NCBI GenBank assembly: GCA_002742935.1
Contig: PDON01000065.1
Coordinates: forward strand, 6,894 to 70,893
Length of the DNA stretch: 64,000 nt
Direction: 5' to 3'
Source of the DNA: Candidatus Cloacimonadota bacterium
Lineage (GTDB): Bacteria; UBA4055
Shown: positions 6,364-31,726 of the stretch, in pieces
Position numbering within the stretch: position 1 is the stretch's first letter
Layout of the letters: every line of letters starts with the position of its first letter
Notes under the pieces: model-generated
Database searches by the model: none
What the model was told of the DNA's origin: nothing
Seen by the model: the letters and a program-made list of their open reading frames with translations, nothing else
Translations under genes and position numbers: made by a program

Positions 6364-6612
6364 TTAGTTGAGCAGTGTTCCAATATCTGAATCAAGTTGA
6401 GAAATTGAGGAGTCTAATCTAGCACTAATATAATCCATAAAGAAACTGCTACCCCTCTCTATAAACTCTATATGTTGACGTATAGCCTTTCTTTCATTCT
6501 CTCTTGCAACAGAAGTCAGATTTTTCTCTTTAATAGATTCTAAAACCTCTTTGACATCTTTTACAATATCCAATCTTGATATAAAAACGTGGTTGTTTGG
6601 AACTACCTTCAT
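6364..6612 (-). CDS. Hypothetical small protein co-transcribed with flgM, possibly flagellar-related.
   Basis: Overlaps the flgM stop by 4 nt (ATGA). No family recognised. Confidence 0.4.
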   Translation of the reverse strand: MKVVPNNHVFISRLDIVKDVKEVLESIKEKNLTSVARENERKAIRQHIEFIERGSSFFMDYISARLDSSISQLDSDIGTLLN

Positions 6613-6992
6613 AGATCTAAATCAACCTCATCTAAAATTTTACCCGCTGTTTCCAAGATAACATCATCTCTGGAATAGAATCCGGTTTCCATTCTTTTCT
6701 TAACCATTTCAATCTTATCTACTCTGGCTTGAGAGTCTCTGTTTAATATAGAGTTAACCATATATCTCTCTTTTTCATCACCCTTTAAATGATTTATCTT
6801 CAATTGAGAGTAACCATCCATACTATCAAGAGTAACTTTTTGATTCTCAGAAGGTGTTTCACAAGAAGTAACATTGCTGCTTCTCTTCATGAAATCTTTT
6901 AGCATATCAACAAAATGTTTATCTGAAGAGTTAACTTTTGAAATCTTTTCGGTTTTTAGATTTTCAGTATGTTGAGTCTTAACTACTTTCAT
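6609..6992 (-). CDS. flgM: Anti-sigma-28 factor FlgM-like protein.
   Basis: C-terminal region ...VDKIEMVKKRMETGFYSRDDVILETAGKILDEVDL matches the conserved FlgM C-terminal helix pair. The true start may be an internal Met. Confidence 0.55.
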   Translation of the reverse strand: MKVVKTQHTENLKTEKISKVNSSDKHFVDMLKDFMKRSSNVTSCETPSENQKVTLDSMDGYSQLKINHLKGDEKERYMVNSILNRDSQARVDKIEMVKKRMETGFYSRDDVILETAGKILDEVDLDL

Positions 6993-7225
6993 TACTGTTA
7001 CTTTTTCGTAAACTTAATTAACAAACACAATCTCACAATTAATAATATGGCAATAAATAAGCCAAAAAACTATAGTAAAATTATTTCATTTGCTATTTAT
7101 TTTAACAATAAAGAAAGTGTCACCTTATAGTATCATAAGCTGATTTCATTTACCACTATAGATACATATTTATTTAGAGTCTACTGGAAAAAGGTGATTT
7201 TGTAACAATGGTTACTCAAAAAAAA

Positions 7226-7254
7226 TTGATATTCCTCCCCTATTTAGGTATTAT
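7226..7254 (+). promoter_or_regulatory. Candidate sigma-70 promoter (TTGATA-17 nt-TATTAT) for the rrf2 operon. An upstream GTAAC-N4-GTTAC palindrome lies at 7202-7215.
   Basis: Near-consensus -35 and -10 hexamers with a 17-nt spacer about 40 nt upstream of the rrf2 ATG. A perfect inverted repeat lies immediately upstream. GGGGAAAGGA RBS before the ATG. Confidence 0.4.
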
Positions 7255-7293
7255 GGTTCTTAAATAGAGAAAAGGGGAAAGGATAAGTTTATT

Positions 7294-7701
7294 ATGAATC
7301 TTTTAAACATCTCCGAAGGTGCTTCTCTTGCAATGCACAGCTTAGCACTAATTGTAAAAAAATATCCTAAGAGAATGAATGCAAAAAGCTTAGCTGAAGA
7401 GCTGGGGGCTTCTCAATCCCATCTTTCAAAGATCTTTCAAAGATTGACAAAAATGAATCTGGTAAACTCTTTAAGAGGTCCTGCCGGTGGCTTTGAACTA
7501 AATGTATCGGCAAAAGATATCTCATTTTTGGATATTTATGAATCCATAGAGGGAAAGGTTATAGTGGATAAATGTCCTCTGGGTAAAAAGGGATGTGCCT
7601 TTGAAAATTGTATCTTTTCAAGCAAGATAAATGTTATAACCAAAGAGCTTTACAACACCTTAAAAGAGATTAAACTCTCCGATTTTGAAATGAAAAATTA
7701 A
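7294..7701 (+). CDS. Rrf2 family transcriptional regulator (IscR/NsrR-like, with 3 Cys for a probable Fe-S cluster).
   Basis: N-terminal wHTH with SQSHLSKIFQRL. C-x-x-x-x-x-x-C-x-x-x-x-C cluster DKCPLGKKGCAFENC. Confidence 0.85.
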   Translation: MNLLNISEGASLAMHSLALIVKKYPKRMNAKSLAEELGASQSHLSKIFQRLTKMNLVNSLRGPAGGFELNVSAKDISFLDIYESIEGKVIVDKCPLGKKGCAFENCIFSSKINVITKELYNTLKEIKLSDFEMKN

Positions 7702-7708
7702 AAATAGT

Positions 7709-8965
7709 ATGTATGAGGAAATCGAGATGAAATATTTTGATAAAAACAGTAGAATCTCAGAAATAATAGAGAAGTATCCAAACACAATACCCGTTTTTAT
7801 CTCTAAAGGATTTAAACAGATGGCAGATGAAGATAAAAGGAACACATTTGCTAAAAATATATCTTTGGGAATGGCACTTTCTTTTAAAAAACTGGACTTT
7901 GATACATTTTCAAAACTATTGATAGAAGCGATTGAAGAGAACTCAAAAGAGGATCTTTCTTTACGGGAGACAGATAAAAAAAACTCTACGAATAGTTTGA
8001 AGATTATGGGGCTTTTTCCTTGTCCCGTTAAGGTTCCTTTAATAGAGGAGTTTACATCTTTTGTAGAGGAGTATACCGAGAACTCAAAAGTTGAAGTGGA
8101 TTTTGATTTAAAGTCAGCTTCTATGGGTCTTGATTGGATTAAGGAGGATATTAAAGATTTAGAGGATCTCTCAACATATCCCGATATTTTGATCTCTCCG
8201 GGATTTGATCTGTTTTTTGACAGAGAGAGGGTAGATCTGTTTGAGAAGAGTAAAATCTTTCAAAATAGCATTAAGTATAAAGAGTATAATAGATCCTTTG
8301 ATGGTTTAAACTTGGAAGATCCTAGATCCTACTTTTCATTACTTGGGGTAGTACCGGCAATATTTATGGTAAACTTAAATGAGCTTGGGGATAGACCTAT
8401 CCCTTTAACTTGGAGTGATATTTTAAAGCCGGAATTTGAGAAAAGGGTTTCTCTTCCGGTAAAAGATTTTGTAATGTTTCACGGAATACTTTTAAATATC
8501 CATAAAATCTATGGAGATGAGGGTGTTATCAAGCTTGGTAAGAGCCTTTTGGAATCCCTTCATCCGGCTCAAATGTTAAAGAGTGAAAGGATAAAAACAG
8601 AGAAGCCGATAATAACTATTATGCCATACTTCTTTACTAAAATGGCGGGTAAAAATAGCAATATGAAAGTTATCTGGCCAAAAGATGGAGCTATAATAAG
8701 TCCTCTTTTTATGCTCGCTAAAAATGATCGCTTAGAGAAGTCCCAAGAGATAATAGATTTCTTTGGGGATAGAAAAATTGCGGAGATTCTTTCTCATAGA
8801 GGTTTTTTCCCAAGTGTAAATCCAGATATTGACAACAATATTGAGAAAGAGAACAGATTTATGTGGCTTGGTTGGGATTATATCTACAACAACAATATGA
8901 AAAATTTGATAGAGCATTGCGAAAAGATCTTTTATCAAAATTCAGATGAAAAAAGCGGTAAATAA
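7709..8965 (+). CDS. Cytoplasmic protein with an N-terminal DUF1858/ScdA_N-like domain fused to a type-2 periplasmic-binding-protein fold resembling Fe3+ ABC substrate-binding proteins (AfuA/FbpA-like). No signal peptide.
   Basis: N-terminus EIIEKYPNTIPVF...ISLGMALSF resembles DUF1858. The C-terminal two thirds (…WSDILKPEFEKRVSLP…KVIWPKDGAIISP…) follows the family-1 solute-binding protein pattern. Starts 8 nt after rrf2. Confidence 0.55.
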   Translation: MYEEIEMKYFDKNSRISEIIEKYPNTIPVFISKGFKQMADEDKRNTFAKNISLGMALSFKKLDFDTFSKLLIEAIEENSKEDLSLRETDKKNSTNSLKIMGLFPCPVKVPLIEEFTSFVEEYTENSKVEVDFDLKSASMGLDWIKEDIKDLEDLSTYPDILISPGFDLFFDRERVDLFEKSKIFQNSIKYKEYNRSFDGLNLEDPRSYFSLLGVVPAIFMVNLNELGDRPIPLTWSDILKPEFEKRVSLPVKDFVMFHGILLNIHKIYGDEGVIKLGKSLLESLHPAQMLKSERIKTEKPIITIMPYFFTKMAGKNSNMKVIWPKDGAIISPLFMLAKNDRLEKSQEIIDFFGDRKIAEILSHRGFFPSVNPDIDNNIEKENRFMWLGWDYIYNNNMKNLIEHCEKIFYQNSDEKSGK

Positions 8966-8974
8966 GGGGGGATT

Positions 8975-9667
8975 ATGAATTTAATTACAGTGTCAGGACC
9001 CCCTTCATCGGGGAAGACATCTATAATATTAAAAACGATAGACTCTTTGAAAAAGAGAGGGCTTAAAGTTGCGGTTGTAAAGTTTGATTGTCTTTATACA
9101 GATGATGATATACTATATGAGAAAGCAAATATTCCGGTAAAAAAGGGTCTTTCGGGTGTTTTGTGTCCGGATCACTACTTCATAAGCAATATTGAAGAGA
9201 TTACAAAGTGGGGAATCGATAACAATTTTGATGTTTTAATAAGTGAATCTGCCGGACTTTGTAACCGTTGCTCTCCATATATAAAAGGGATAAAGGCTAT
9301 ATGTGTTATAGATAATTTAAGTGGTATTAATACACCTAAAAAAATAGGTCCAATGTTGAAATCTGCCGATATTGTGGTAATTACCAAGGGGGATATTGTA
9401 TCTCAAGCGGAAAGAGAGGTTTTTGCTTCCAGAGTAAACACCGTAAACCCAAGGGCTATCATTATGAATATAAATGGTCTCACCGGTCAGGGAAGCTATG
9501 AACTTTCTACCTTGGTTTATGATGATGAGAATAATATTGATACTCTTGTAGGCAAGCAACTTAGATTCCCAATGCCTGCCGCTATCTGTTCATACTGTCT
9601 TGGAGAAACTAGAATAGGCGAGAGTTATCAAATGGGAAATGTTAGAAAAATTAAGTTGGACGATTAG
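8975..9667 (+). CDS. G3E-family P-loop GTPase, HypB/UreG-like metallochaperone homologue.
   Basis: Walker A GPPSSGKTS. ESAGLCNRCSPY parallels HypB ENVGNLVCP. VITKGD corresponds to the NKxD-like motif. CPDHY sits at the position of the HypB CH metal-binding motif. Confidence 0.6.
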   Translation: MNLITVSGPPSSGKTSIILKTIDSLKKRGLKVAVVKFDCLYTDDDILYEKANIPVKKGLSGVLCPDHYFISNIEEITKWGIDNNFDVLISESAGLCNRCSPYIKGIKAICVIDNLSGINTPKKIGPMLKSADIVVITKGDIVSQAEREVFASRVNTVNPRAIIMNINGLTGQGSYELSTLVYDDENNIDTLVGKQLRFPMPAAICSYCLGETRIGESYQMGNVRKIKLDD

Positions 9668-9670
9668 AAA

Positions 9671-10684
9671 ATGAAGTATAATAGTGAAAATATAAGGAAA
9701 GAGAGATTAAGGGATATTATAGAGAACTACCCTTTCATTGAGACCTATTTTAGTGATAATAATTTTGATATCAACGATAAAACAGATCTTACTCTTGAAC
9801 AGTTTTTAGGGGAGTTTGATACGGCTAAAATAGAGGATGATGCTATAGATATAGAGAGTTTCTATCTAAATATTGTTGAGTTTATAGATCAAATGTCCCA
9901 ATTTTTAGGTCAAGAGGATGAGGGGATATCATCTATAACAATCCTTCCGGGACAGGACAAATCAAAAACTCCTGAAAAATTTGAAAAGTTTGAGATAAAA
10001 AAGGGTGAGGTTATATGTATTGTAGGGCCTACAGGTTCAGGTAAAAGCCGTTTACTTGCAGATATTGAGTGGGTTGCCCAAAACGATACACCTACAAATC
10101 GTAAAATACTTATAGATAATGATATACCTGATACAAAATGGCGTTTCTCTATCTCTGATAAACTGGTAGCTCAAATTTCCCAAAATATGAACTTTGTTAT
10201 GGATCTCACAGTCTCCGAGTTTATAGAGCTCCACGCAGAGAGTAGACTTGTGGAAAATAAGGAGGAGGTTGTTCAAAAGATTATCTCAAGAGCAAATGAT
10301 TTAGCTGGAGAAAAGTTTACTCTAGATACCCCAATTACAAGTTTAAGTGGAGGTCAATCGAGAGCTTTAATGATTGCTGACACTGCTATTTTAAGTAAAT
10401 CTCCAATTATTTTAATAGATGAGATTGAGAATGCAGGAATTGATAGAAAAGAAGCGTTGAAACTTCTTTTGTCTGAAGATAAAATTGTTTTAATGGCAAC
10501 TCACGATCCTATCTTAGCACTTTTGGGGGATAAAAGAGTTGTTATAAAAAATGGTGGTATAGATAAAATTATCCATACAACTCAAAAGGAGAGGGAGATT
10601 TTAGGAACTTTGGAGCATATGGATAAAACCCTATTATCCTATAGAACTAAATTGAGAAATGGTGAAAGATTAAACCAATTATAA
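9671..10684 (+). CDS. Soluble ABC-type ATPase with no transmembrane domain and an N-terminal extension of about 100 aa.
   Basis: Walker A GPTGSGKS, signature LSGGQ, Walker B IILIDE, H-loop ATHD. No hydrophobic segments. Confidence 0.75.
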   Translation: MKYNSENIRKERLRDIIENYPFIETYFSDNNFDINDKTDLTLEQFLGEFDTAKIEDDAIDIESFYLNIVEFIDQMSQFLGQEDEGISSITILPGQDKSKTPEKFEKFEIKKGEVICIVGPTGSGKSRLLADIEWVAQNDTPTNRKILIDNDIPDTKWRFSISDKLVAQISQNMNFVMDLTVSEFIELHAESRLVENKEEVVQKIISRANDLAGEKFTLDTPITSLSGGQSRALMIADTAILSKSPIILIDEIENAGIDRKEALKLLLSEDKIVLMATHDPILALLGDKRVVIKNGGIDKIIHTTQKEREILGTLEHMDKTLLSYRTKLRNGERLNQL

Positions 10685-10695
10685 AGGAGTAAATT

Positions 10696-10941
10696 ATGCC
10701 TCATGAAGGATGTAGTGGATCATTTGAGAATGGAAAACAGGTTGTAGATAAGGTAAGATTAATGGGGTTTGCAAACCAGTATATGCCAGTTCCTATGAAC
10801 CTTAAATGTGAAAATTGTAATAATGAGTTTGAGATGGAAAGATATGAGGAGCATTGCCCTAAATGCAATATGGTTTATGCTGTTACCCCTTGCCACGCTT
10901 TTGATCCATCAAATGTTTCTGCAGCAGGGATTGATTATTAA
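10696..10941 (+). CDS. Small Cys-rich zinc-ribbon protein.
   Basis: CENCN...HCPKCN, that is a CxxC-(17)-CxxC arrangement. Last gene of the tightly spaced operon. Confidence 0.5.
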   Translation: MPHEGCSGSFENGKQVVDKVRLMGFANQYMPVPMNLKCENCNNEFEMERYEEHCPKCNMVYAVTPCHAFDPSNVSAAGIDY

Positions 10942-11074: not shown

Positions 11075-11110
11075 ATCTCTTCTCCCCCTGAAATAGAGAA
11101 GAGATTTTAA
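11075..11110 (+). terminator. Intrinsic terminator downstream of the rrf2 operon.
   Basis: atctcttctc-(11 nt loop)-gagaagagat: a perfect 10-bp stem followed by tttaag, a T-rich tail. Confidence 0.6.
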
Positions 11111-12182: not shown

Positions 12183-12365
12183 TTGAGGATTAAAACGGTC
12201 AGAAAAGTAAGATATATAGATCTATTTGCTGGTATTGGTGGTTTCCATCAAGCTATGAATGGGTTTAATGCAGAATGTGTTTTCTCTTCTGAGTGGGATA
12301 AAGAAGCAGCAAAAACCTATTTTGAAAATTATGGTATTAAGCTACATGGCGATATCACAAAGATA
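12183..12365 (+). pseudogene. Remnant (about the first 60 codons) of a DNA cytosine-5 methyltransferase gene.
   Basis: Motif I YIDLFAGIGGF, then SEWDKEAAKTY and GDITKI, all typical of Dcm-type C5-MTases. After about aa 60 the ORF-track translation (12183..12542, TTG start) degenerates into low-complexity sequence. No PCQ or ENV motifs. Confidence 0.55.
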
Positions 12366-12683
12366 AAAGAGAAATCCAAGAGAAGAGTTACTAAAAAATA
12401 TAAAAGTCGTATTGTAAGAGAAAATATAAACCGGGAATCTCTTAAGTCAACAGCATTGACCCTGAAGCTACTCAAAGGGTACAACTATGTTGATCACCTT
12501 CCGTCTTCGGCCTCCCCCTCTTCTACCTCCCACGATCCATAGCTATTACATAAGATGGACTATTATTTTTATATTTTAATGAGGTAGATTTAATGATTTA
12601 TAATGAGATTATCGTTTATAATATTTGGGAGTGTGACACTTTTTCTATATATGCCACACTCCCCTTTTCCACGGAGAATGGAT

Positions 12684-28228: not shown

Positions 28229-31200
28229 CTAGGTATAAAACTTATTTTCTGTAGCATCTTTCATAGTTTTAGATAATGTTTCTATGGTAAAAGGTTTTTG
28301 GATATATCCTACATTATCATTTTCCGAAAGAACACTCTGTACCCTGTGATCTTGTTTAAAACCAGAAGTTAGAATGATTTTTTGAGTTGGATCTATCTCC
28401 CTTATTTTCTTAAAAGCCTCTTTTCCTGAAAGTATAGGCATAACCATATCCAAAAGTATAAGATCTATTTTATCCCCATTTTCTTCAAAAACATCTATTG
28501 CCTCTTGCCCATTATTAGCTGTTATAACAGAATAACCGCACTCCTCAAGAATTCCTCTTGAGGTTATTCTCATAATCTCTTGATCATCTACAACTAAAAC
28601 AGTTCCTAATCCCAAAGGGATATCCTCCTCTTCATCTTTAAGGTCTATTACATCTTCATTTGCTTCATAAGCAGGAATTAGTATTTTAACTTTAGTTCCT
28701 ACAGAAAGTTCAGAATCAACTTTTATTATACCACCATGTTGCTCTACAATACTGTAAACCATGGCTAATCCTAAACCTGTCCCTTTATCCTTATCTTTAG
28801 TAGTAAAAAAAGGATCAAATATTTTAGATAGATTTTCTTTAGAGATACCAACCCCATTATCCTCAATTGTCAGTGAGATATAATCTCCCGATATTTTAAT
28901 ACCATTCTCCTTAGCAAAATCAGGATCTACAAAAAACTTTTCTGTAACAATTTTTAAGATTCCTCCCCACCTAACATTTTCACCTCTCATAATTGTCATA
29001 GCATGACAGGCATTTACACATAAATTTAAAACAGTCTGCTCTATCTGTACAGGATCAGCATTTATTTTTGCAGGAGTACCTAGCATTACAGGTTTAATTT
29101 CAACACTTCTGTCAAATGATGATCTAATTATTTTTACAACATGATTTACTGTTTTATTTAAATCTACAGGAGCAAGTGCAGACTCCTGTTTTCTTGAAAG
29201 AGTAAGAAGTTGTTTAACCATTTCAGTAGCACTCTGACCCGCTTTCTCTAAGGTTTCAATATGCTTATTAAGATCTTCTCTATTTAACTCTCCGTTTCTA
29301 TTAAGCTTAAATTTCATAAAAGAGAGAGTTCCTACAATACCACCTAAAACATTGTTAAAATCGTGAGCAAGACCTCCTGCCAAAGTTCCAATAGTCTCCA
29401 TTTTTTGAGCCTGAATAAGCTGGAGTTCCTTATTCTCAATTTCAGTAACATCATCAATCTGTATAATCATTTCACTATTTTGATCATATAAAAGCTTAAA
29501 AAGCTTTATAGTAAAATATTTATTTTCTAAATTATCAAACTTAAATTTTGAAAATTCAAACCTTCTATTTTCATCAATAACCTCAAAGAAGTACTTATGA
29601 AACACTTCTAAAGAAGGTATAATATCAAAATAAAGATTTCCTCTCACCTTATTAGAGTCAAGATTGAAAAGCTTATCAACAACAAGATTAGTATGTGTAA
29701 TTCTTCCCTTATTATCAACTGAAATCAAACCTTGCGATATGGTATTTAAAATATAACTTTGATGTTCTCTAATTCTAATTATCGCTTTTTCATTCTTCCT
29801 CTTTTGGGTTTGATCTGTTACAAATATCATAACAGAATTTTTATCTTTCCACTTTATTGGCGTAATATTTAATTCTGCCCAAAGAGTATTACCGTTCTTA
29901 TGGATCATATTTACAACTAAATTTTTGACATTCATTGGCTTGAAAGTTAATCTTAAAAGGATCTCATTAAGATGCTCAATATCTTTTTTAGAAATAATTT
30001 TAGAAAGAACAATATCCTCATCTCTTTCATTATTGTAACCGGTAATATTCCTAAATACTGAATTAACATAAAGAATATTACCTCTTTCTAAAACAATTAT
30101 ACCCTCTGTAGAGTTTTCAATAATGGTTCTATAGATAGATTTAGACTGTTTAAGATCTGATTCTATCCTCTTTCTTTCTGTTATATCAAGATAAACACCA
30201 TCAAAAATTAAGATCTCCCCATCATCTTTTACTAGCTTTATATGCTCTTGAATCCACTTAACTTTGCCCTTCTTTGTTCTCACTCTATACTCAAAAAGAT
30301 TCTCCTTAACATTTGTATCAAAAATGAAAAACTCATCTCCTTGATCTTCCGGTAATATTATACTCTTATAAGCAGAAAAAGAGTTTGAAATAAAATATTC
30401 CTTATTATAACCTGTTATAGATTCAATATTATCACTTAAGAAGAGATACCGTGATTTTGTTCCTTTAGTTTCAATCCTAAAAACTGAAGCAGAAATATTG
30501 TTTATCATGGATTTATATTTATCTCTATCCTCTTTAAACTCCATTTCTGTAATGTGATGCTGGGTTATATCTCTTATAAGTATAAAGTAACTCTTATGAT
30601 TTTTTGTAGAGATACTAAATTCAGTAAAAATATTCTCTTCAACAAAAAACTCAAAACTTTGTTCATGAAGTTTCCTTGTATCCAAAAACTTAATTACCTT
30701 AAAAATTTTATTGAAAAGATCTGAGCCAAAAATATCCTTAATATTCTTTCCCGTTAAAGATATAGATTCTTTACTGCTCTTATAAAAACTTTCACTTGGA
30801 GAAAATTCATTTAGAATATTGTAGTTTCTATCTATTTCAATAATACATATAGGCAATACTTGAGATATTAATTTAAACAAATTTATATCATTACGCCTAT
30901 TTATATTTTTTTTCAAAATTTTATGCATAAGGACCAAAACCACAACAATGGTTATAAAAGTAAGTAAATCAAAAAAACTAAAAAAAGAACTCTTTTCTTC
31001 ATCATTGATATTTAACCACTTTTTTTCAAGAAACTCAATGCAACCATCATTCTTTAAAAATTCAAGCCTCCGATTGATAAAAGTGTAGAGTTCCTCTCTA
31101 TTTTTTTGTATCCCAATTCTTATACTTTTACAGAAAACAGATTCAGAGATTAAATTAACCTTATCTCTCAAACCTGTTCTGCTTATAGAATTATCCAAAA

Positions 31201-31726
31201 CATGAAGCTCACCAAAAACAGCTTTTAACCTTCTATTCCCCAAAGATACAATCGCAGAATCAATATCTAAGATTGGCTCTAATTTGAAATTGTAATCCAG
31301 ATTTTTTAAATATTGGAGAGAGTAGCTACCATATTGAACACCTACAACTTCATCACTATCTATATCATTGAGAGAGAGGAAATCTTTATCTCTACTCCTC
31401 TTTGCCAAATGAAATTTTATATGAGAGTAAACATCTGAATAATCTATTTTTTTACTTCTATTATCGCTAATTATAATGGTGGATAAAAGATCTGCACCTC
31501 CTTTGTTAACAATCTCAACACCCTTATCTACTGAAATAACACTCTCAAATTGTAGCTTATACTCTGAATTTTCAAAAATTTTATTTATTAAATCAATTGA
31601 AAATCCTATACTATTATCACCTTTTTTACTTGAGAAAGGATAAAGATTTTCCGGAAAAAGAACTTTCAAGTTTTTTGATATTAATGATGATGATAAAAGA
31701 AAAAGTATTAAAAATAATCTTAACAT
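28229..31726 (-). CDS. Hybrid sensor histidine kinase / response regulator. N-terminal periplasmic SBP_bac_3-like sensor domain, then a TM helix, multiple PAS domains, HisKA, HATPase_c and a C-terminal REC.
   Basis: Signal peptide plus an ~230-aa solute-binding-like domain, a TM segment, PAS repeats, the H-box LAGGLAHDFNN, N/G boxes, and a receiver domain with DDQ...LLDMVMP...K. Confidence 0.85.
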   Translation of the reverse strand: MLRLFLILFLLSSSLISKNLKVLFPENLYPFSSKKGDNSIGFSIDLINKIFENSEYKLQFESVISVDKGVEIVNKGGADLLSTIIISDNRSKKIDYSDVYSHIKFHLAKRSRDKDFLSLNDIDSDEVVGVQYGSYSLQYLKNLDYNFKLEPILDIDSAIVSLGNRRLKAVFGELHVLDNSISRTGLRDKVNLISESVFCKSIRIGIQKNREELYTFINRRLEFLKNDGCIEFLEKKWLNINDEEKSSFFSFFDLLTFITIVVVLVLMHKILKKNINRRNDINLFKLISQVLPICIIEIDRNYNILNEFSPSESFYKSSKESISLTGKNIKDIFGSDLFNKIFKVIKFLDTRKLHEQSFEFFVEENIFTEFSISTKNHKSYFILIRDITQHHITEMEFKEDRDKYKSMINNISASVFRIETKGTKSRYLFLSDNIESITGYNKEYFISNSFSAYKSIILPEDQGDEFFIFDTNVKENLFEYRVRTKKGKVKWIQEHIKLVKDDGEILIFDGVYLDITERKRIESDLKQSKSIYRTIIENSTEGIIVLERGNILYVNSVFRNITGYNNERDEDIVLSKIISKKDIEHLNEILLRLTFKPMNVKNLVVNMIHKNGNTLWAELNITPIKWKDKNSVMIFVTDQTQKRKNEKAIIRIREHQSYILNTISQGLISVDNKGRITHTNLVVDKLFNLDSNKVRGNLYFDIIPSLEVFHKYFFEVIDENRRFEFSKFKFDNLENKYFTIKLFKLLYDQNSEMIIQIDDVTEIENKELQLIQAQKMETIGTLAGGLAHDFNNVLGGIVGTLSFMKFKLNRNGELNREDLNKHIETLEKAGQSATEMVKQLLTLSRKQESALAPVDLNKTVNHVVKIIRSSFDRSVEIKPVMLGTPAKINADPVQIEQTVLNLCVNACHAMTIMRGENVRWGGILKIVTEKFFVDPDFAKENGIKISGDYISLTIEDNGVGISKENLSKIFDPFFTTKDKDKGTGLGLAMVYSIVEQHGGIIKVDSELSVGTKVKILIPAYEANEDVIDLKDEEEDIPLGLGTVLVVDDQEIMRITSRGILEECGYSVITANNGQEAIDVFEENGDKIDLILLDMVMPILSGKEAFKKIREIDPTQKIILTSGFKQDHRVQSVLSENDNVGYIQKPFTIETLSKTMKDATENKFYT

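Follow-up and report, generated by a model that had tools for sequence, protein, structure and literature searches.

A conserved permease-less cassette of a G3E GTPase, a soluble ABC ATPase and a cytoplasmic binding protein, with a possible role in metal or metal-cluster delivery or repair

Why would a bacterium keep a metallochaperone-type GTPase, an ATP-binding cassette (ABC) ATPase and a transporter-type binding protein together in one operon with neither a permease nor a hydrogenase or urease beside them? This question is raised by a five-gene operon in a 64,000-nucleotide stretch of DNA from a metagenome-assembled Candidatus Cloacimonadota genome (assembly GCA_002742935.1, contig PDON01000065.1), hereafter the window, whose own numbering is used throughout. 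Comparison with related loci shows, at the level of sequence, that four of the five genes form a conserved, cytoplasmic, permease-less module. We put the chances at about even that the operon is a cytoplasmic machine, induced by nitrosative or redox stress and working without a permease, that delivers or repairs a metal or a metal cluster.

The four-gene module and its proteins

The operon consists of five co-directional open reading frames (ORFs) on the forward strand between 7294 and 10941, separated as called by 7, 9, 3 and 11 nucleotides (nt):

7294-7701, forward strand: Rrf2-family regulator, 135 amino acids (Pfam Rrf2, 85.8 bits)
7709-8965, forward strand: fusion of DUF1858 and SBP_bac_6 domains, 418 amino acids from the first ATG (DUF1858 52.6 bits, SBP_bac_6 239 bits)
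8975-9667, forward strand: G3E-family GTPase, 230 amino acids (Pfam cobW/HypB/UreG domain, 51.8 bits)
9671-10684, forward strand: soluble ABC ATPase, 337 amino acids (ABC_tran, 64.9 bits, residues 106-251)
10696-10941, forward strand: HypA-like zinc-ribbon protein, 81 amino acids (Pfam HypA, 24 bits, below the cut-off of 28.9)

The true start of the binding-protein gene is probably the ATG at 7727, giving a product of 412 amino acids, because orthologues begin there and GAGGAA lies 8 nt upstream; the first spacer, between Rrf2 and the binding-protein gene, would therefore become 25 nt. Sequences resembling Shine-Dalgarno sites were seen ahead of the Rrf2, GTPase and zinc-ribbon genes. P0001, a protein encoded in assembly GCA_002754885.1, has the same sequence as the fusion protein (100% identity).

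To follow the cassette beyond the window we scanned one genome per GTDB species for the fusion protein, which proved to be encoded in at least 489 species genomes from Cloacimonadota, Spirochaetota, Fermentibacterota, Marinimicrobia and Bacteroidota (Marinifilaceae), the last with the cultured carriers Marinifilum, Labilibaculum and Ancylomarina. We then fetched 86 loci from Cloacimonadota, Spirochaetota, Fermentibacterota and Bacteroidota. Every complete locus had the binding-protein, GTPase, ABC ATPase and zinc-ribbon genes in this order, between unrelated flanks, while Rrf2 stood ahead of the cassette in 44 loci, behind it in 2 and was absent in about 30. That the genes are real follows from 80 further loci in which the cassette recurs, its proteins being 44-88% identical. 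The GTPase is remarkably similar across different phyla (79-88% identity to the window protein in four phyla); in the fetched loci the corresponding values were 59-74% for the ABC ATPase and likewise for the zinc-ribbon protein, 47-57% for the binding protein and 44-63% for Rrf2. No permease gene was present in any of the 86 loci.

Named motifs (Rrf2 C94/C101/C106, LCPDHY, ESAGLCNRCSPY and CxxC...CxxC) were conserved across 48-82 orthologues, and none of the five proteins reached the equivalog cut-off of a named NCBIfam family. A scan of thirty other large window ORFs identified them as housekeeping genes; hydrogenase, urease, carbon monoxide dehydrogenase (CODH), hcp and CRP/FNR genes were not found among the window ORFs scanned. 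A membership in anti-phage defence was considered and set aside, as PADLOC returned generic ABC-ATPase matches only. The searchable literature and the curated family libraries yielded no description of the cassette or of the wider GTPase-ABC pair, although one may exist elsewhere; selenoprotein reviews that name DUF1858 and CobW-like proteins concern other families.

An initial annotation, made from the letters of the window, had proposed a single compact operon for an Rrf2 regulator with three cysteines, a DUF1858-binding-protein fusion lacking a signal peptide, a G3E GTPase with HypB-like motifs, an ABC ATPase with its own N-terminal domain and no membrane partner, and a CxxC...CxxC zinc ribbon, in an undescribed combination with no hydrogenase or urease nearby. 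These proposals withstood the comparison: all ORFs were confirmed and recur together, the neighbourhood conservation that it suggested checking is seen in every complete locus, and the family assignments hold as detailed below.

The regulator passed the Rrf2 family cut-offs (Pfam PF02082, 85.8 bits against 30; TIGR00738, 83.5 against 73.3) and fell below those of IscR (57.7/207.6 bits), NsrR (33.8/182), RirA (35.2/193) and CymR (32.3/195). Glu8, Cys94, Cys101 and Cys106 were at least 97% conserved in 48 orthologues. Because three cysteines and Glu8 are conserved, cluster binding is likely, and the protein is a probable iron-sulphur (Fe-S) cluster sensor outside the named Rrf2 subfamilies.

We modelled the structure of the second protein. 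The AlphaFold2 (AF2) model (mean predicted local distance difference test score, pLDDT, 82) comprises a helical N-terminal domain, a disordered linker at residues 79-92 and a class II binding-protein fold. A sequence search of solved structures with the binding-protein domain gave no match; by structure, the closest solved relatives were FutA, FbpA, PotD, AfuA and a pyridoxal phosphate (PLP) binder at 10-15% identity, with a Foldseek probability of 1.0 and a template-modelling (TM) score on the target of about 0.65-0.73 for FbpA, FutA and PotD. Iron, polyamines, sugar phosphates and PLP are the ligands of these best structural matches. The conserved residues of the cleft loops are Cys105, several Asp and Trp residues and His285; Cys105 is invariant, lies in a P-C-P motif after strand 1 and is kept even in a 25%-identical Desulfoscipio homologue. 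The N-terminal DUF1858 domain, which also gave a weak match to NCBIfam TIGR03980, belongs to a kind of domain that is associated with the hybrid cluster protein Hcp and related to RIC/ScdA.

The fourth protein carries the conserved ABC motifs (PF00005) Walker A GPTGSGKS, Q171, LSGGQ, ILIDE and H278, and its best solved relative is MJ0796 (1.9e-13). No membrane domain, fused or alongside, was seen in any locus. Its N-terminal 95-100 amino acids or so are soluble and match no family. We asked whether they form a second DUF1858 domain and left them unassigned, the likeness being weak: hhalign gave a probability of 30% over 25 columns, PF08984 matched 2 of 34 members with E-values of at least 0.02, and there was no solved relative.

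The simplest account of a binding protein next to an ABC ATPase is an ordinary importer whose permease is encoded elsewhere and whose binding protein has been given the wrong start. In its favour, SBP_bac_6 adjoins a transporter-type nucleotide-binding domain, and in public annotations the fusion appears as the substrate-binding protein of an iron or spermidine/putrescine ABC transporter. However, there is no signal peptide or lipobox in the fusion protein, whose N-terminus is the hydrophilic DUF1858 domain in all 82 orthologues, which speaks against the mis-started secreted protein named as an alternative by the initial annotation. In addition to the lack of a permease gene in the 86 loci, the ABC ATPase is fused to the GTPase in a single chain in some organisms (P0123, 509 amino acids; P0124, 613 amino acids), and the two proteins occur without any binding protein in archaea and Planctomycetota. 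These data contradict the importer account, which we regard as very improbable.

Metal sites of the GTPase and the zinc-ribbon protein

The GTPase scored 51.8 bits on Pfam PF02492 (cut-off 20.7), and its P-loop GPPSSGKT, its ESAG motif, the glutamate of which names the G3E class, and its TKGD motif were all at least 97% conserved. Conserved cysteine and histidine residues are C39, C64, H67, C96, C99, C110, C205 and C208. Aligned with HMMER, Cys64-Pro-Asp-His67 coincides with the UreG nickel motif CPH and with Cys95-His96 of Methanocaldococcus jannaschii HypB, and GLCNRC takes the place of the HypB segment GNLICP. HypB and UreG are also its best NCBIfam matches, although its scores remain far below their cut-offs (TIGR00073, 47.6/121.2 bits; TIGR00101, 29.2/204.2 bits). 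The CxCC motif of the COG0523/CobW/ZigA proteins is absent from the GTPase, which has LCPDHY and GLCNRCS instead, and the CobW and ZigA models scored 13.3/332 and 17.1/600 bits. A HMMER scan of 1.84 billion cluster representatives returned 456 matches at E-values up to 1e-3, which marks the family as compact and as distinct from HypB and UreG. By these measures the GTPase is a G3E member of a distinct clade, outside HypB and UreG.

The zinc-ribbon protein led to a related comparison. In HypA, Met1-His2-Glu3 form the nickel site and two CxxC pairs form a structural zinc site. All 34 aligned orthologues of the cassette protein start M-H-[D/E]-G-C; H3, C6, C38, C41, C54, C57 and C66 never vary in them, and H67 hardly does. 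Matches to Pfam HypA were obtained for 31 of 35 family members (best 2e-5), below the cut-off and over the zinc-ribbon part only, and a full-length HypA match was not reached (PF01155, 24/28.9 bits; TIGR00100, 17.8/88.1 bits; profile positions 64-94 only). Because the M-H-[D/E] start of the orthologues and the two CxxC pairs recall the HypA sites, the protein looks, from its sequence, like a shortened HypA with an extra Cys66/His67 pair. A search of solved structures with its sequence gave no match, and a single-sequence AF2 model had a pLDDT of 50, too low to use. The window protein itself starts M-P-H-E-G-C, so that histidine comes second only if Met1 is removed; a 3-nt insertion (CCT, encoding Pro2) at 10696-10704 accounts for this start and is shared by L004 and L005, which are assemblies of the same organism.

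These features bring in nickel, or cobalt, as a cargo. The cassette would then insert the metal, in the manner of HypA and HypB, into a nickel enzyme encoded elsewhere, with the binding protein serving as a cytoplasmic nickel store or receptor. Nickel is suggested because of the MHE and CPxH motifs, that is, the HypA-like start with its zinc ribbon and the Cys-Pro-Asp-His segment aligning with the UreG and HypB sites, and the NCBIfam ranking of the GTPase points the same way. However, all scores lie far under the HypB, UreG and HypA cut-offs, and hydrogenase, urease and CODH genes, which had not been found in the window, were not found across the 86 loci either. We consider this explanation improbable, and two further observations that count against it are given with the neighbouring genes and the distant clades.

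Promoter sites and neighbouring genes

The following candidate signals lie at the two ends of the operon:

7202-7215, no strand assigned: palindrome GTAACAATGGTTAC, candidate HcpR2-type site, with its centre about 52 nt ahead of the predicted transcription start
7226-7254, forward strand: candidate sigma-70-type promoter (TTGATA, 17-nt spacer, TATTAT), agreeing with the consensus at 10 of 12 positions
7242-7265, no strand assigned: imperfect palindrome ATTTAGGTATTATGGTTCTTAAAT over the -10 box, candidate Rrf2 operator
11075-11108, forward strand: terminator-like hairpin, stem of 10-12 bp, loop of 11 nt, followed by TTTT

The near-consensus promoter of the initial annotation is upheld as a site, since TTGACA-17-TAnnnT was found at the equivalent place in aligned regions upstream of Rrf2 in orthologous loci. 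The score by itself does not carry the claim, as 26 promoter-like sites were found against 21 expected, which is not above chance. The hairpin, which lies 134 nt past the last stop codon and folds with -17 kcal/mol in ViennaRNA, is a plausible operon terminator; a simple terminator scan of the region gave no match and missed it because its loop exceeds 8 nt.

The same annotation had noted a GTAAC-N4-GTTAC palindrome and assigned it to Rrf2. The palindrome is real, being the sole exact match to this pattern in the 64-kb window, but the assignment has to be given up: GTAACAATGGTTAC is identical, letter for letter, to GTAACnnnnGTTAC, the consensus derived for HcpR2 by Rodionov et al. 2005 (PMC1274295), and such sites precede cassettes without Rrf2 as well. 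HcpR2, which belongs to the CRP/FNR family, regulates hcp in Clostridia, Bacteroides, Thermotogales and Treponema; it has a signature proline at the position of CRP Glu181, and its regulons in Bacteroides, Porphyromonas, Treponema and Thermotogales were reported as hcp alone (PMC1274295). In 1.05 Mb of locus DNA we found 28 exact GTAAC-N4-GTTAC matches, 26 of them just upstream of the first cassette gene. HcpR2-type sites stood before cassettes in three phyla (21 non-redundant loci); in the window and eight spirochaete loci the gene that follows the site is Rrf2. The Marinifilaceae loci, none of which has Rrf2, all carry the site about 65-75 nt upstream of the binding-protein gene, and a CRP/FNR gene 5 kb away encodes the recognition helix TRPSFAR ('RPSxxR', with proline at the CRP Glu181 position), in agreement with the Pro187, Ser188 and Arg191 contacts reported for Bacteroides thetaiotaomicron HcpR. 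On this comparative evidence the cassette is predicted to be a member of the nitric oxide (NO)-responsive HcpR2 regulon in three phyla.

As a separate observation, the site in Marinifilaceae, for example in L073 (1368-6743, reverse strand), falls in a divergent intergenic region and could serve both directions. The opposite operon of L073, on its minus strand, encodes a 763-amino-acid secreted protein, an ABC ATPase, an ABC-2 permease and the HcpR2-like regulator.

The second palindrome, ATTTAGGTATTATGGTTCTTAAAT, is the single window match, with 2 mismatches, to ATTTAGGTA-N6-TACCTAAAT. An alignment of upstream regions gave the palindrome cTATTTAGGTAt-N4-6-TACCTAAATAg, which spans the promoter spacer and the -10 box. 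Its core, TTAGGTA-N5-7-TACCTAA, was present upstream of 40 of 43 cassettes headed by Rrf2 and of 0 of 32 without an upstream Rrf2, against a background of 182 matches in 982 kb. Because the palindrome co-varies with the presence of Rrf2, we take ATTTAGGTATTATGGTTCTTAAAT as a candidate operator of the operon's own Rrf2; it is placed as a repressor site would be, and this assignment is likely. In most lineages the cassette is thus predicted to be also, or instead, under the control of a 3-Cys Rrf2. Neither regulatory site was found in 19 of 75 cassettes.

We clustered the neighbouring ORFs of all 86 loci and looked for recurrent genes. Beyond the core and Rrf2 the commonest were a cupin of 113 amino acids (24 loci) and a protein of about 550 amino acids that starts MFCYQCQET (22 loci). 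The latter is encoded directly downstream on the same strand and scored 820-845 bits on the hydroxylamine reductase/Hcp equivalog (cut-off 367). Ni-CODH was considered as an alternative identity and rejected, as the CODH model gave about 30 bits. Among 58 non-redundant loci with enough downstream sequence, 22 had hcp on the same strand within 650 nt of the zinc-ribbon stop codon, mostly in Cloacimonadota and in three spirochaetes. Together with the HcpR2-type site, this adjacency lends comparative support to the NO-responsive control that had been suggested for the operon; regulation by an Rrf2 repressor and an HcpR2-type activator is likewise supported by comparative evidence. The adjacency also weighs against nickel insertion, in that the only recurring neighbour enzyme is Hcp, scoring as hydroxylamine reductase and not as Ni-CODH.

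The NO-type regulatory sites would also suit a system that buffers, sequesters or re-allocates iron or zinc from NO-damaged proteins under stress, thereby limiting toxicity or mis-metallation, and has no dedicated client. The many conserved thiolates of the GTPase and the zinc-ribbon protein and the Fe3+-type fold of the binding protein are in keeping with such a function, and NO is reported to mobilise zinc from bacterial metalloproteins (PMC7683392). However, two NTPases and a HypA-like adaptor are typical of directed delivery and not of passive storage, and the adjacency of hcp, as well as the cysteine desulfurase and Fe-S genes found in other clades, points to biosynthesis or repair. We give buffering a small chance of being the correct explanation.

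Several further observations concern the surroundings of the cassette. The 113-amino-acid Cupin_2 protein is encoded between Rrf2 and the binding-protein gene in its 24 loci, mostly Cloacimonadota (examples are L002 at 7641-7982, L007-L018, L023 and L026), and has no NCBIfam assignment. In L002, a Spirochaetia genome, a small NifX/NifB-like protein (PF02579, dinitrogenase Fe-Mo cofactor family; 6714-7106) and a divergent CRP/FNR gene are found immediately ahead of the cassette with its Rrf2 gene. In the window, two small overlapping ORFs of 82 and 127 amino acids (6364-6992, reverse strand) are divergent from the operon; they have no Pfam match and are annotated as genes in public assemblies. 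Downstream, at 12183-12542 on the forward strand, a truncated C-5 cytosine DNA methylase of 119 amino acids is probably a gene remnant, because it covers only positions 2-56 of the 324 in the Pfam model; a gene is called there in L005 and not in L004. Farther away, at 28229-31726 on the reverse strand, a hybrid sensor kinase of 1165 amino acids combines an N-terminal SBP_bac_3 domain with several PAS, HisKA/HATPase and receiver domains.

The GTPase-ABC pair, a proposed mechanism and known systems

We then turned to distant relatives of the GTPase. At 32-42% identity these keep CPDH, E[ST]AGLCxRC[SA]P, SQAERE and a C-terminal CxxC, and the GTPase and ABC genes were adjacent in 7 of 7 distant loci examined. 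The cassette ABC ATPase is 39-53% identical to those beside the same GTPase in Planctomycetota, Methanocaldococcus and Firmicutes. The percentages in the following list are likewise identities to the window proteins:

L088 and L089 (Planctomycetota, Acidobacteriota): ABC ATPase of 264 amino acids, GTPase, cysteine desulfurase and a 240-amino-acid PF04060 protein; ABC 39-41%, GTPase about 36%
L092, 5219-7348 (Methanocaldococcus sp. FS406-22, CP001901): ABC ATPase, GTPase and PF04060 protein; ABC 53%, GTPase 52%
L093, 4012-7375 (a metagenome-assembled genome, MAG): GTPase, radical S-adenosylmethionine (SAM) enzyme, second GTPase and ABC ATPase; GTPases 43% and 32%, ABC 47%
L094 (Desulfoscipio): GTPase, ABC ATPase and SBP_bac_6 protein without DUF1858; GTPase 55%, ABC 47%, binding protein 25%

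No NCBIfam model was reached at its cut-off by these distant proteins. Because the two genes are adjacent in every locus and natural fusions exist, the comparison shows, as far as gene order and sequence can, an obligate GTPase-ABC partnership. The N-terminal extension is missing from ABC orthologues outside the DUF1858-binding-protein clade, and because it is confined to that clade, a contact of the extension with the fusion protein would fit.

The Planctomycetota/Acidobacteriota GTPase clade numbers at least 3010 proteins. Its sister system (L087-L091, from MAGs; for example L089, 5210-8729) has a GTPase of 233 amino acids and a NifS-like cysteine desulfurase, and its 240-amino-acid protein joins an N-terminal PF04060 Fe-S motif to a Cys-rich C-terminal domain (GMSCGCPITHCG, WCVTGP, MCMLQW). 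In L091 and L092 the pair occurs with the PF04060 protein alone. The L092 cassette adjoins a divergently oriented McrD homologue; its M. jannaschii orthologues, MJ0121, MJ0120 and MJ0119, are all 'uncharacterized' in UniProt, and no paper mentioning them was found in the literature searched. The radical SAM protein of L093 (440 amino acids) is weakly HxsC4/MoaA-like, and the second, more divergent GTPase of that locus ends CHFCQGKGSGHE.

This company of the GTPase is a further point against nickel insertion, as distant clades pair it with cysteine desulfurase, Fe-S and radical SAM proteins. The same evidence raises the possibility of housekeeping or auxiliary Fe-S biogenesis, with the ABC ATPase acting like SufC, the GTPase as an iron chaperone, and NO regulation as one set-up of several. 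The pair is of ancient origin and wide distribution (Methanocaldococcus MJ0120/MJ0121, Planctomycetota, Acidobacteriota, Firmicutes) and stands beside NifS-like cysteine desulfurases and PF04060 Fe-S proteins; an Rrf2 gene, encoding a protein without cysteines, heads L088 as one heads the window operon; and the 19 cassettes with neither regulatory site would suit this account. Set against it, the window's own clade lacks a cysteine desulfurase or scaffold gene, no cassette sequence was seen to resemble the scaffold proteins SufB/D, IscU or NifU, and the conserved regulators and the neighbouring gene (HcpR2 site, hcp) are NO-specific. SufC was not among the best 25 NCBIfam matches of the cassette proteins, and no SufC-specific score was taken. 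To us this explanation is as improbable as nickel insertion or buffering.

Delivery or repair of a metal or cluster under stress is the reading that we favour, and a working model can be outlined in which the biochemistry is drawn from knowledge of the protein families. An Fe-S-type Rrf2 repressor would sit on the -10 palindrome and leave when its cluster is damaged, while a heme- or NO-sensing HcpR2-type activator would bind GTAAC-N4-GTTAC upstream. The G3E GTPase dimer would hold a metal ion or small cluster at Cys64/His67/Cys96/Cys99 under nucleotide control, as HypB and UreG do, and would pass this cargo to the HypA-like protein, whose site would comprise the N-terminal Met-His-Asp/Glu, Cys6 and Cys66/His67 and which would dock on the client enzyme. 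The DUF1858-binding-protein fusion would capture cargo or a precursor in the cleft with the invariant cysteine, and the ABC ATPase dimer, physically tied to the GTPase, would spend ATP on opening the binding protein and passing the cargo to the next partner. The binding protein most likely carries iron or an iron species, a cargo suggested by the link to Hcp and by the company that the GTPase keeps in other clades (cysteine desulfurase, Fe-S and radical SAM proteins). As client, Hcp is the most likely candidate, with other NO-damaged Fe-S proteins as further possibilities; we know of no dedicated maturation factor for the hybrid cluster of Hcp.

Several points weigh against this reading. An MHE terminus like that of HypA and a CPxH motif like that of UreG are classical sites for nickel, whereas iron is the only metal of Hcp, and to our knowledge Hcp of Escherichia coli is matured without such factors. 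Asp and Trp abound in the conserved pocket of the binding protein, which in this resembles those of polyamine binders as much as of iron binders, and the likeness of the ABC N-terminal domain to DUF1858 is weak. The position of the HcpR2 site, centred at about -52, is no canonical class I or class II activator position, and the 64-kb window holds no CRP/FNR (HcpR) homologue. Finally, 36 of the 58 loci lack an adjacent hcp, and therefore Hcp may not be the client, or not the sole one; in the window itself tblastn found no hcp, HcpR gene or cupin. As a general idea, the metal delivery or repair machine of the initial annotation has been strengthened; the HypA-like N-terminus, the hcp link and the ancient GTPase-ABC pair with other partners were not part of it. 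The metal or cluster handled and the repair function are inferred.

A broader proposal, which we hold tentatively and consider somewhat unlikely, is that the GTPase and ABC ATPase are the core of an ancient, unrecognised two-NTPase pathway of metallocluster biogenesis or repair with swappable partners. The window operon would be its NO-inducible branch, supplying iron to, or rebuilding, the [4Fe-2S-2O] cluster of Hcp and other NO-damaged centres. The pair ranges over Methanocaldococcus (MJ0119-MJ0121), Planctomycetota, Firmicutes, Bacteroidota and Cloacimonadota, and its partners are a cysteine desulfurase with an Fe-S protein, a radical SAM enzyme, or a cytoplasmic binding protein with a miniature HypA. 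The cassette bears on how iron centres are rebuilt after NO damage, where the iron comes from and how the hybrid cluster of Hcp is made, and it provides concrete candidate proteins carried by cultured marine Bacteroidota, such as Marinifilum fragile and Labilibaculum filiforme, and by spirochaetes such as Oceanispirochaeta crateris. It would add a new metallochaperone architecture driven by nucleoside triphosphates (NTPs), in which a G3E GTPase works with an ABC ATPase, at times within the same chain, and a binding-protein fold operates in the cytoplasm. It would also give the first functional lead for MJ0119-MJ0121 and for the thousands of relatives that carry the labels 'GTP-binding protein' or 'ABC transporter', and would extend the predicted HcpR2 regulon beyond hcp.

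Comparison with known systems places the cassette close to several of them. Like HypA/HypB and UreG, it has a G3E GTPase whose Cys/His metal site occupies the corresponding place, and this GTPase is paired, as in HypA/HypB, with a small zinc-ribbon protein that has CxxC...CxxC and, in the orthologues, an M-H-[D/E] start. Unlike HypB and UreG, the GTPase has the additional conserved pairs C96/C99 and C205/C208 and TKGD in place of NKxD; the HypA-like protein has 81 amino acids instead of about 113 and a second Cys/His pair; and the cassette lacks a hydrogenase or urease and always includes an ABC ATPase and a binding protein. With SufBC2D it shares a transporter-type ABC ATPase that has no membrane domain and would act on soluble partners, as SufC does, and relatives of the pair stand beside cysteine desulfurases, some headed by Rrf2. 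In contrast to SufBC2D, there is no SufB/SufD-like scaffold gene in the cassette, the ABC ATPase has its own N-terminal domain, and we know of no G3E GTPase partner in SUF.

RIC/YtfE/ScdA proteins, which belong to NO-stress regulons together with hcp (PMC1274295), resemble the cassette in having a DUF1858/ScdA_N-kind domain. In the cassette, however, this domain has no cysteines, and its fusion partner is a binding-protein fold instead of a di-iron hemerythrin domain. FbpA, FutA and PotD share the class II fold and the partnership with an ABC ATPase, whereas the cassette protein is cytoplasmic, has neither signal peptide nor permease, is 10-15% identical to them and has one invariant cleft cysteine in place of the Tyr/Tyr/His/Glu iron ligands. 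As in HcpR and NsrR regulons, the cassette promoter combines the HcpR2 consensus with a candidate 3-Cys Rrf2 operator and hcp is among the commonest neighbours, although published HcpR2 regulons do not list the cassette as a member. The CooC/CooT/CooJ proteins of Ni-CODH, a structural relative of Hcp, are likewise nucleotide-dependent accessory proteins beside a prismane-family enzyme with an unusual cluster, but CooC is a MinD-type ATPase and not a G3E GTPase, and the cassette neighbour is Hcp and not CODH. By the sequence criteria applied here, the cassette belongs neither to HypAB/UreG nor to RIC/YtfE, and probably not to SufC. Its kinship is with the NTP-dependent metallochaperone and maturation systems, and there is a real chance that its GTPase-ABC core represents a new pathway among them.

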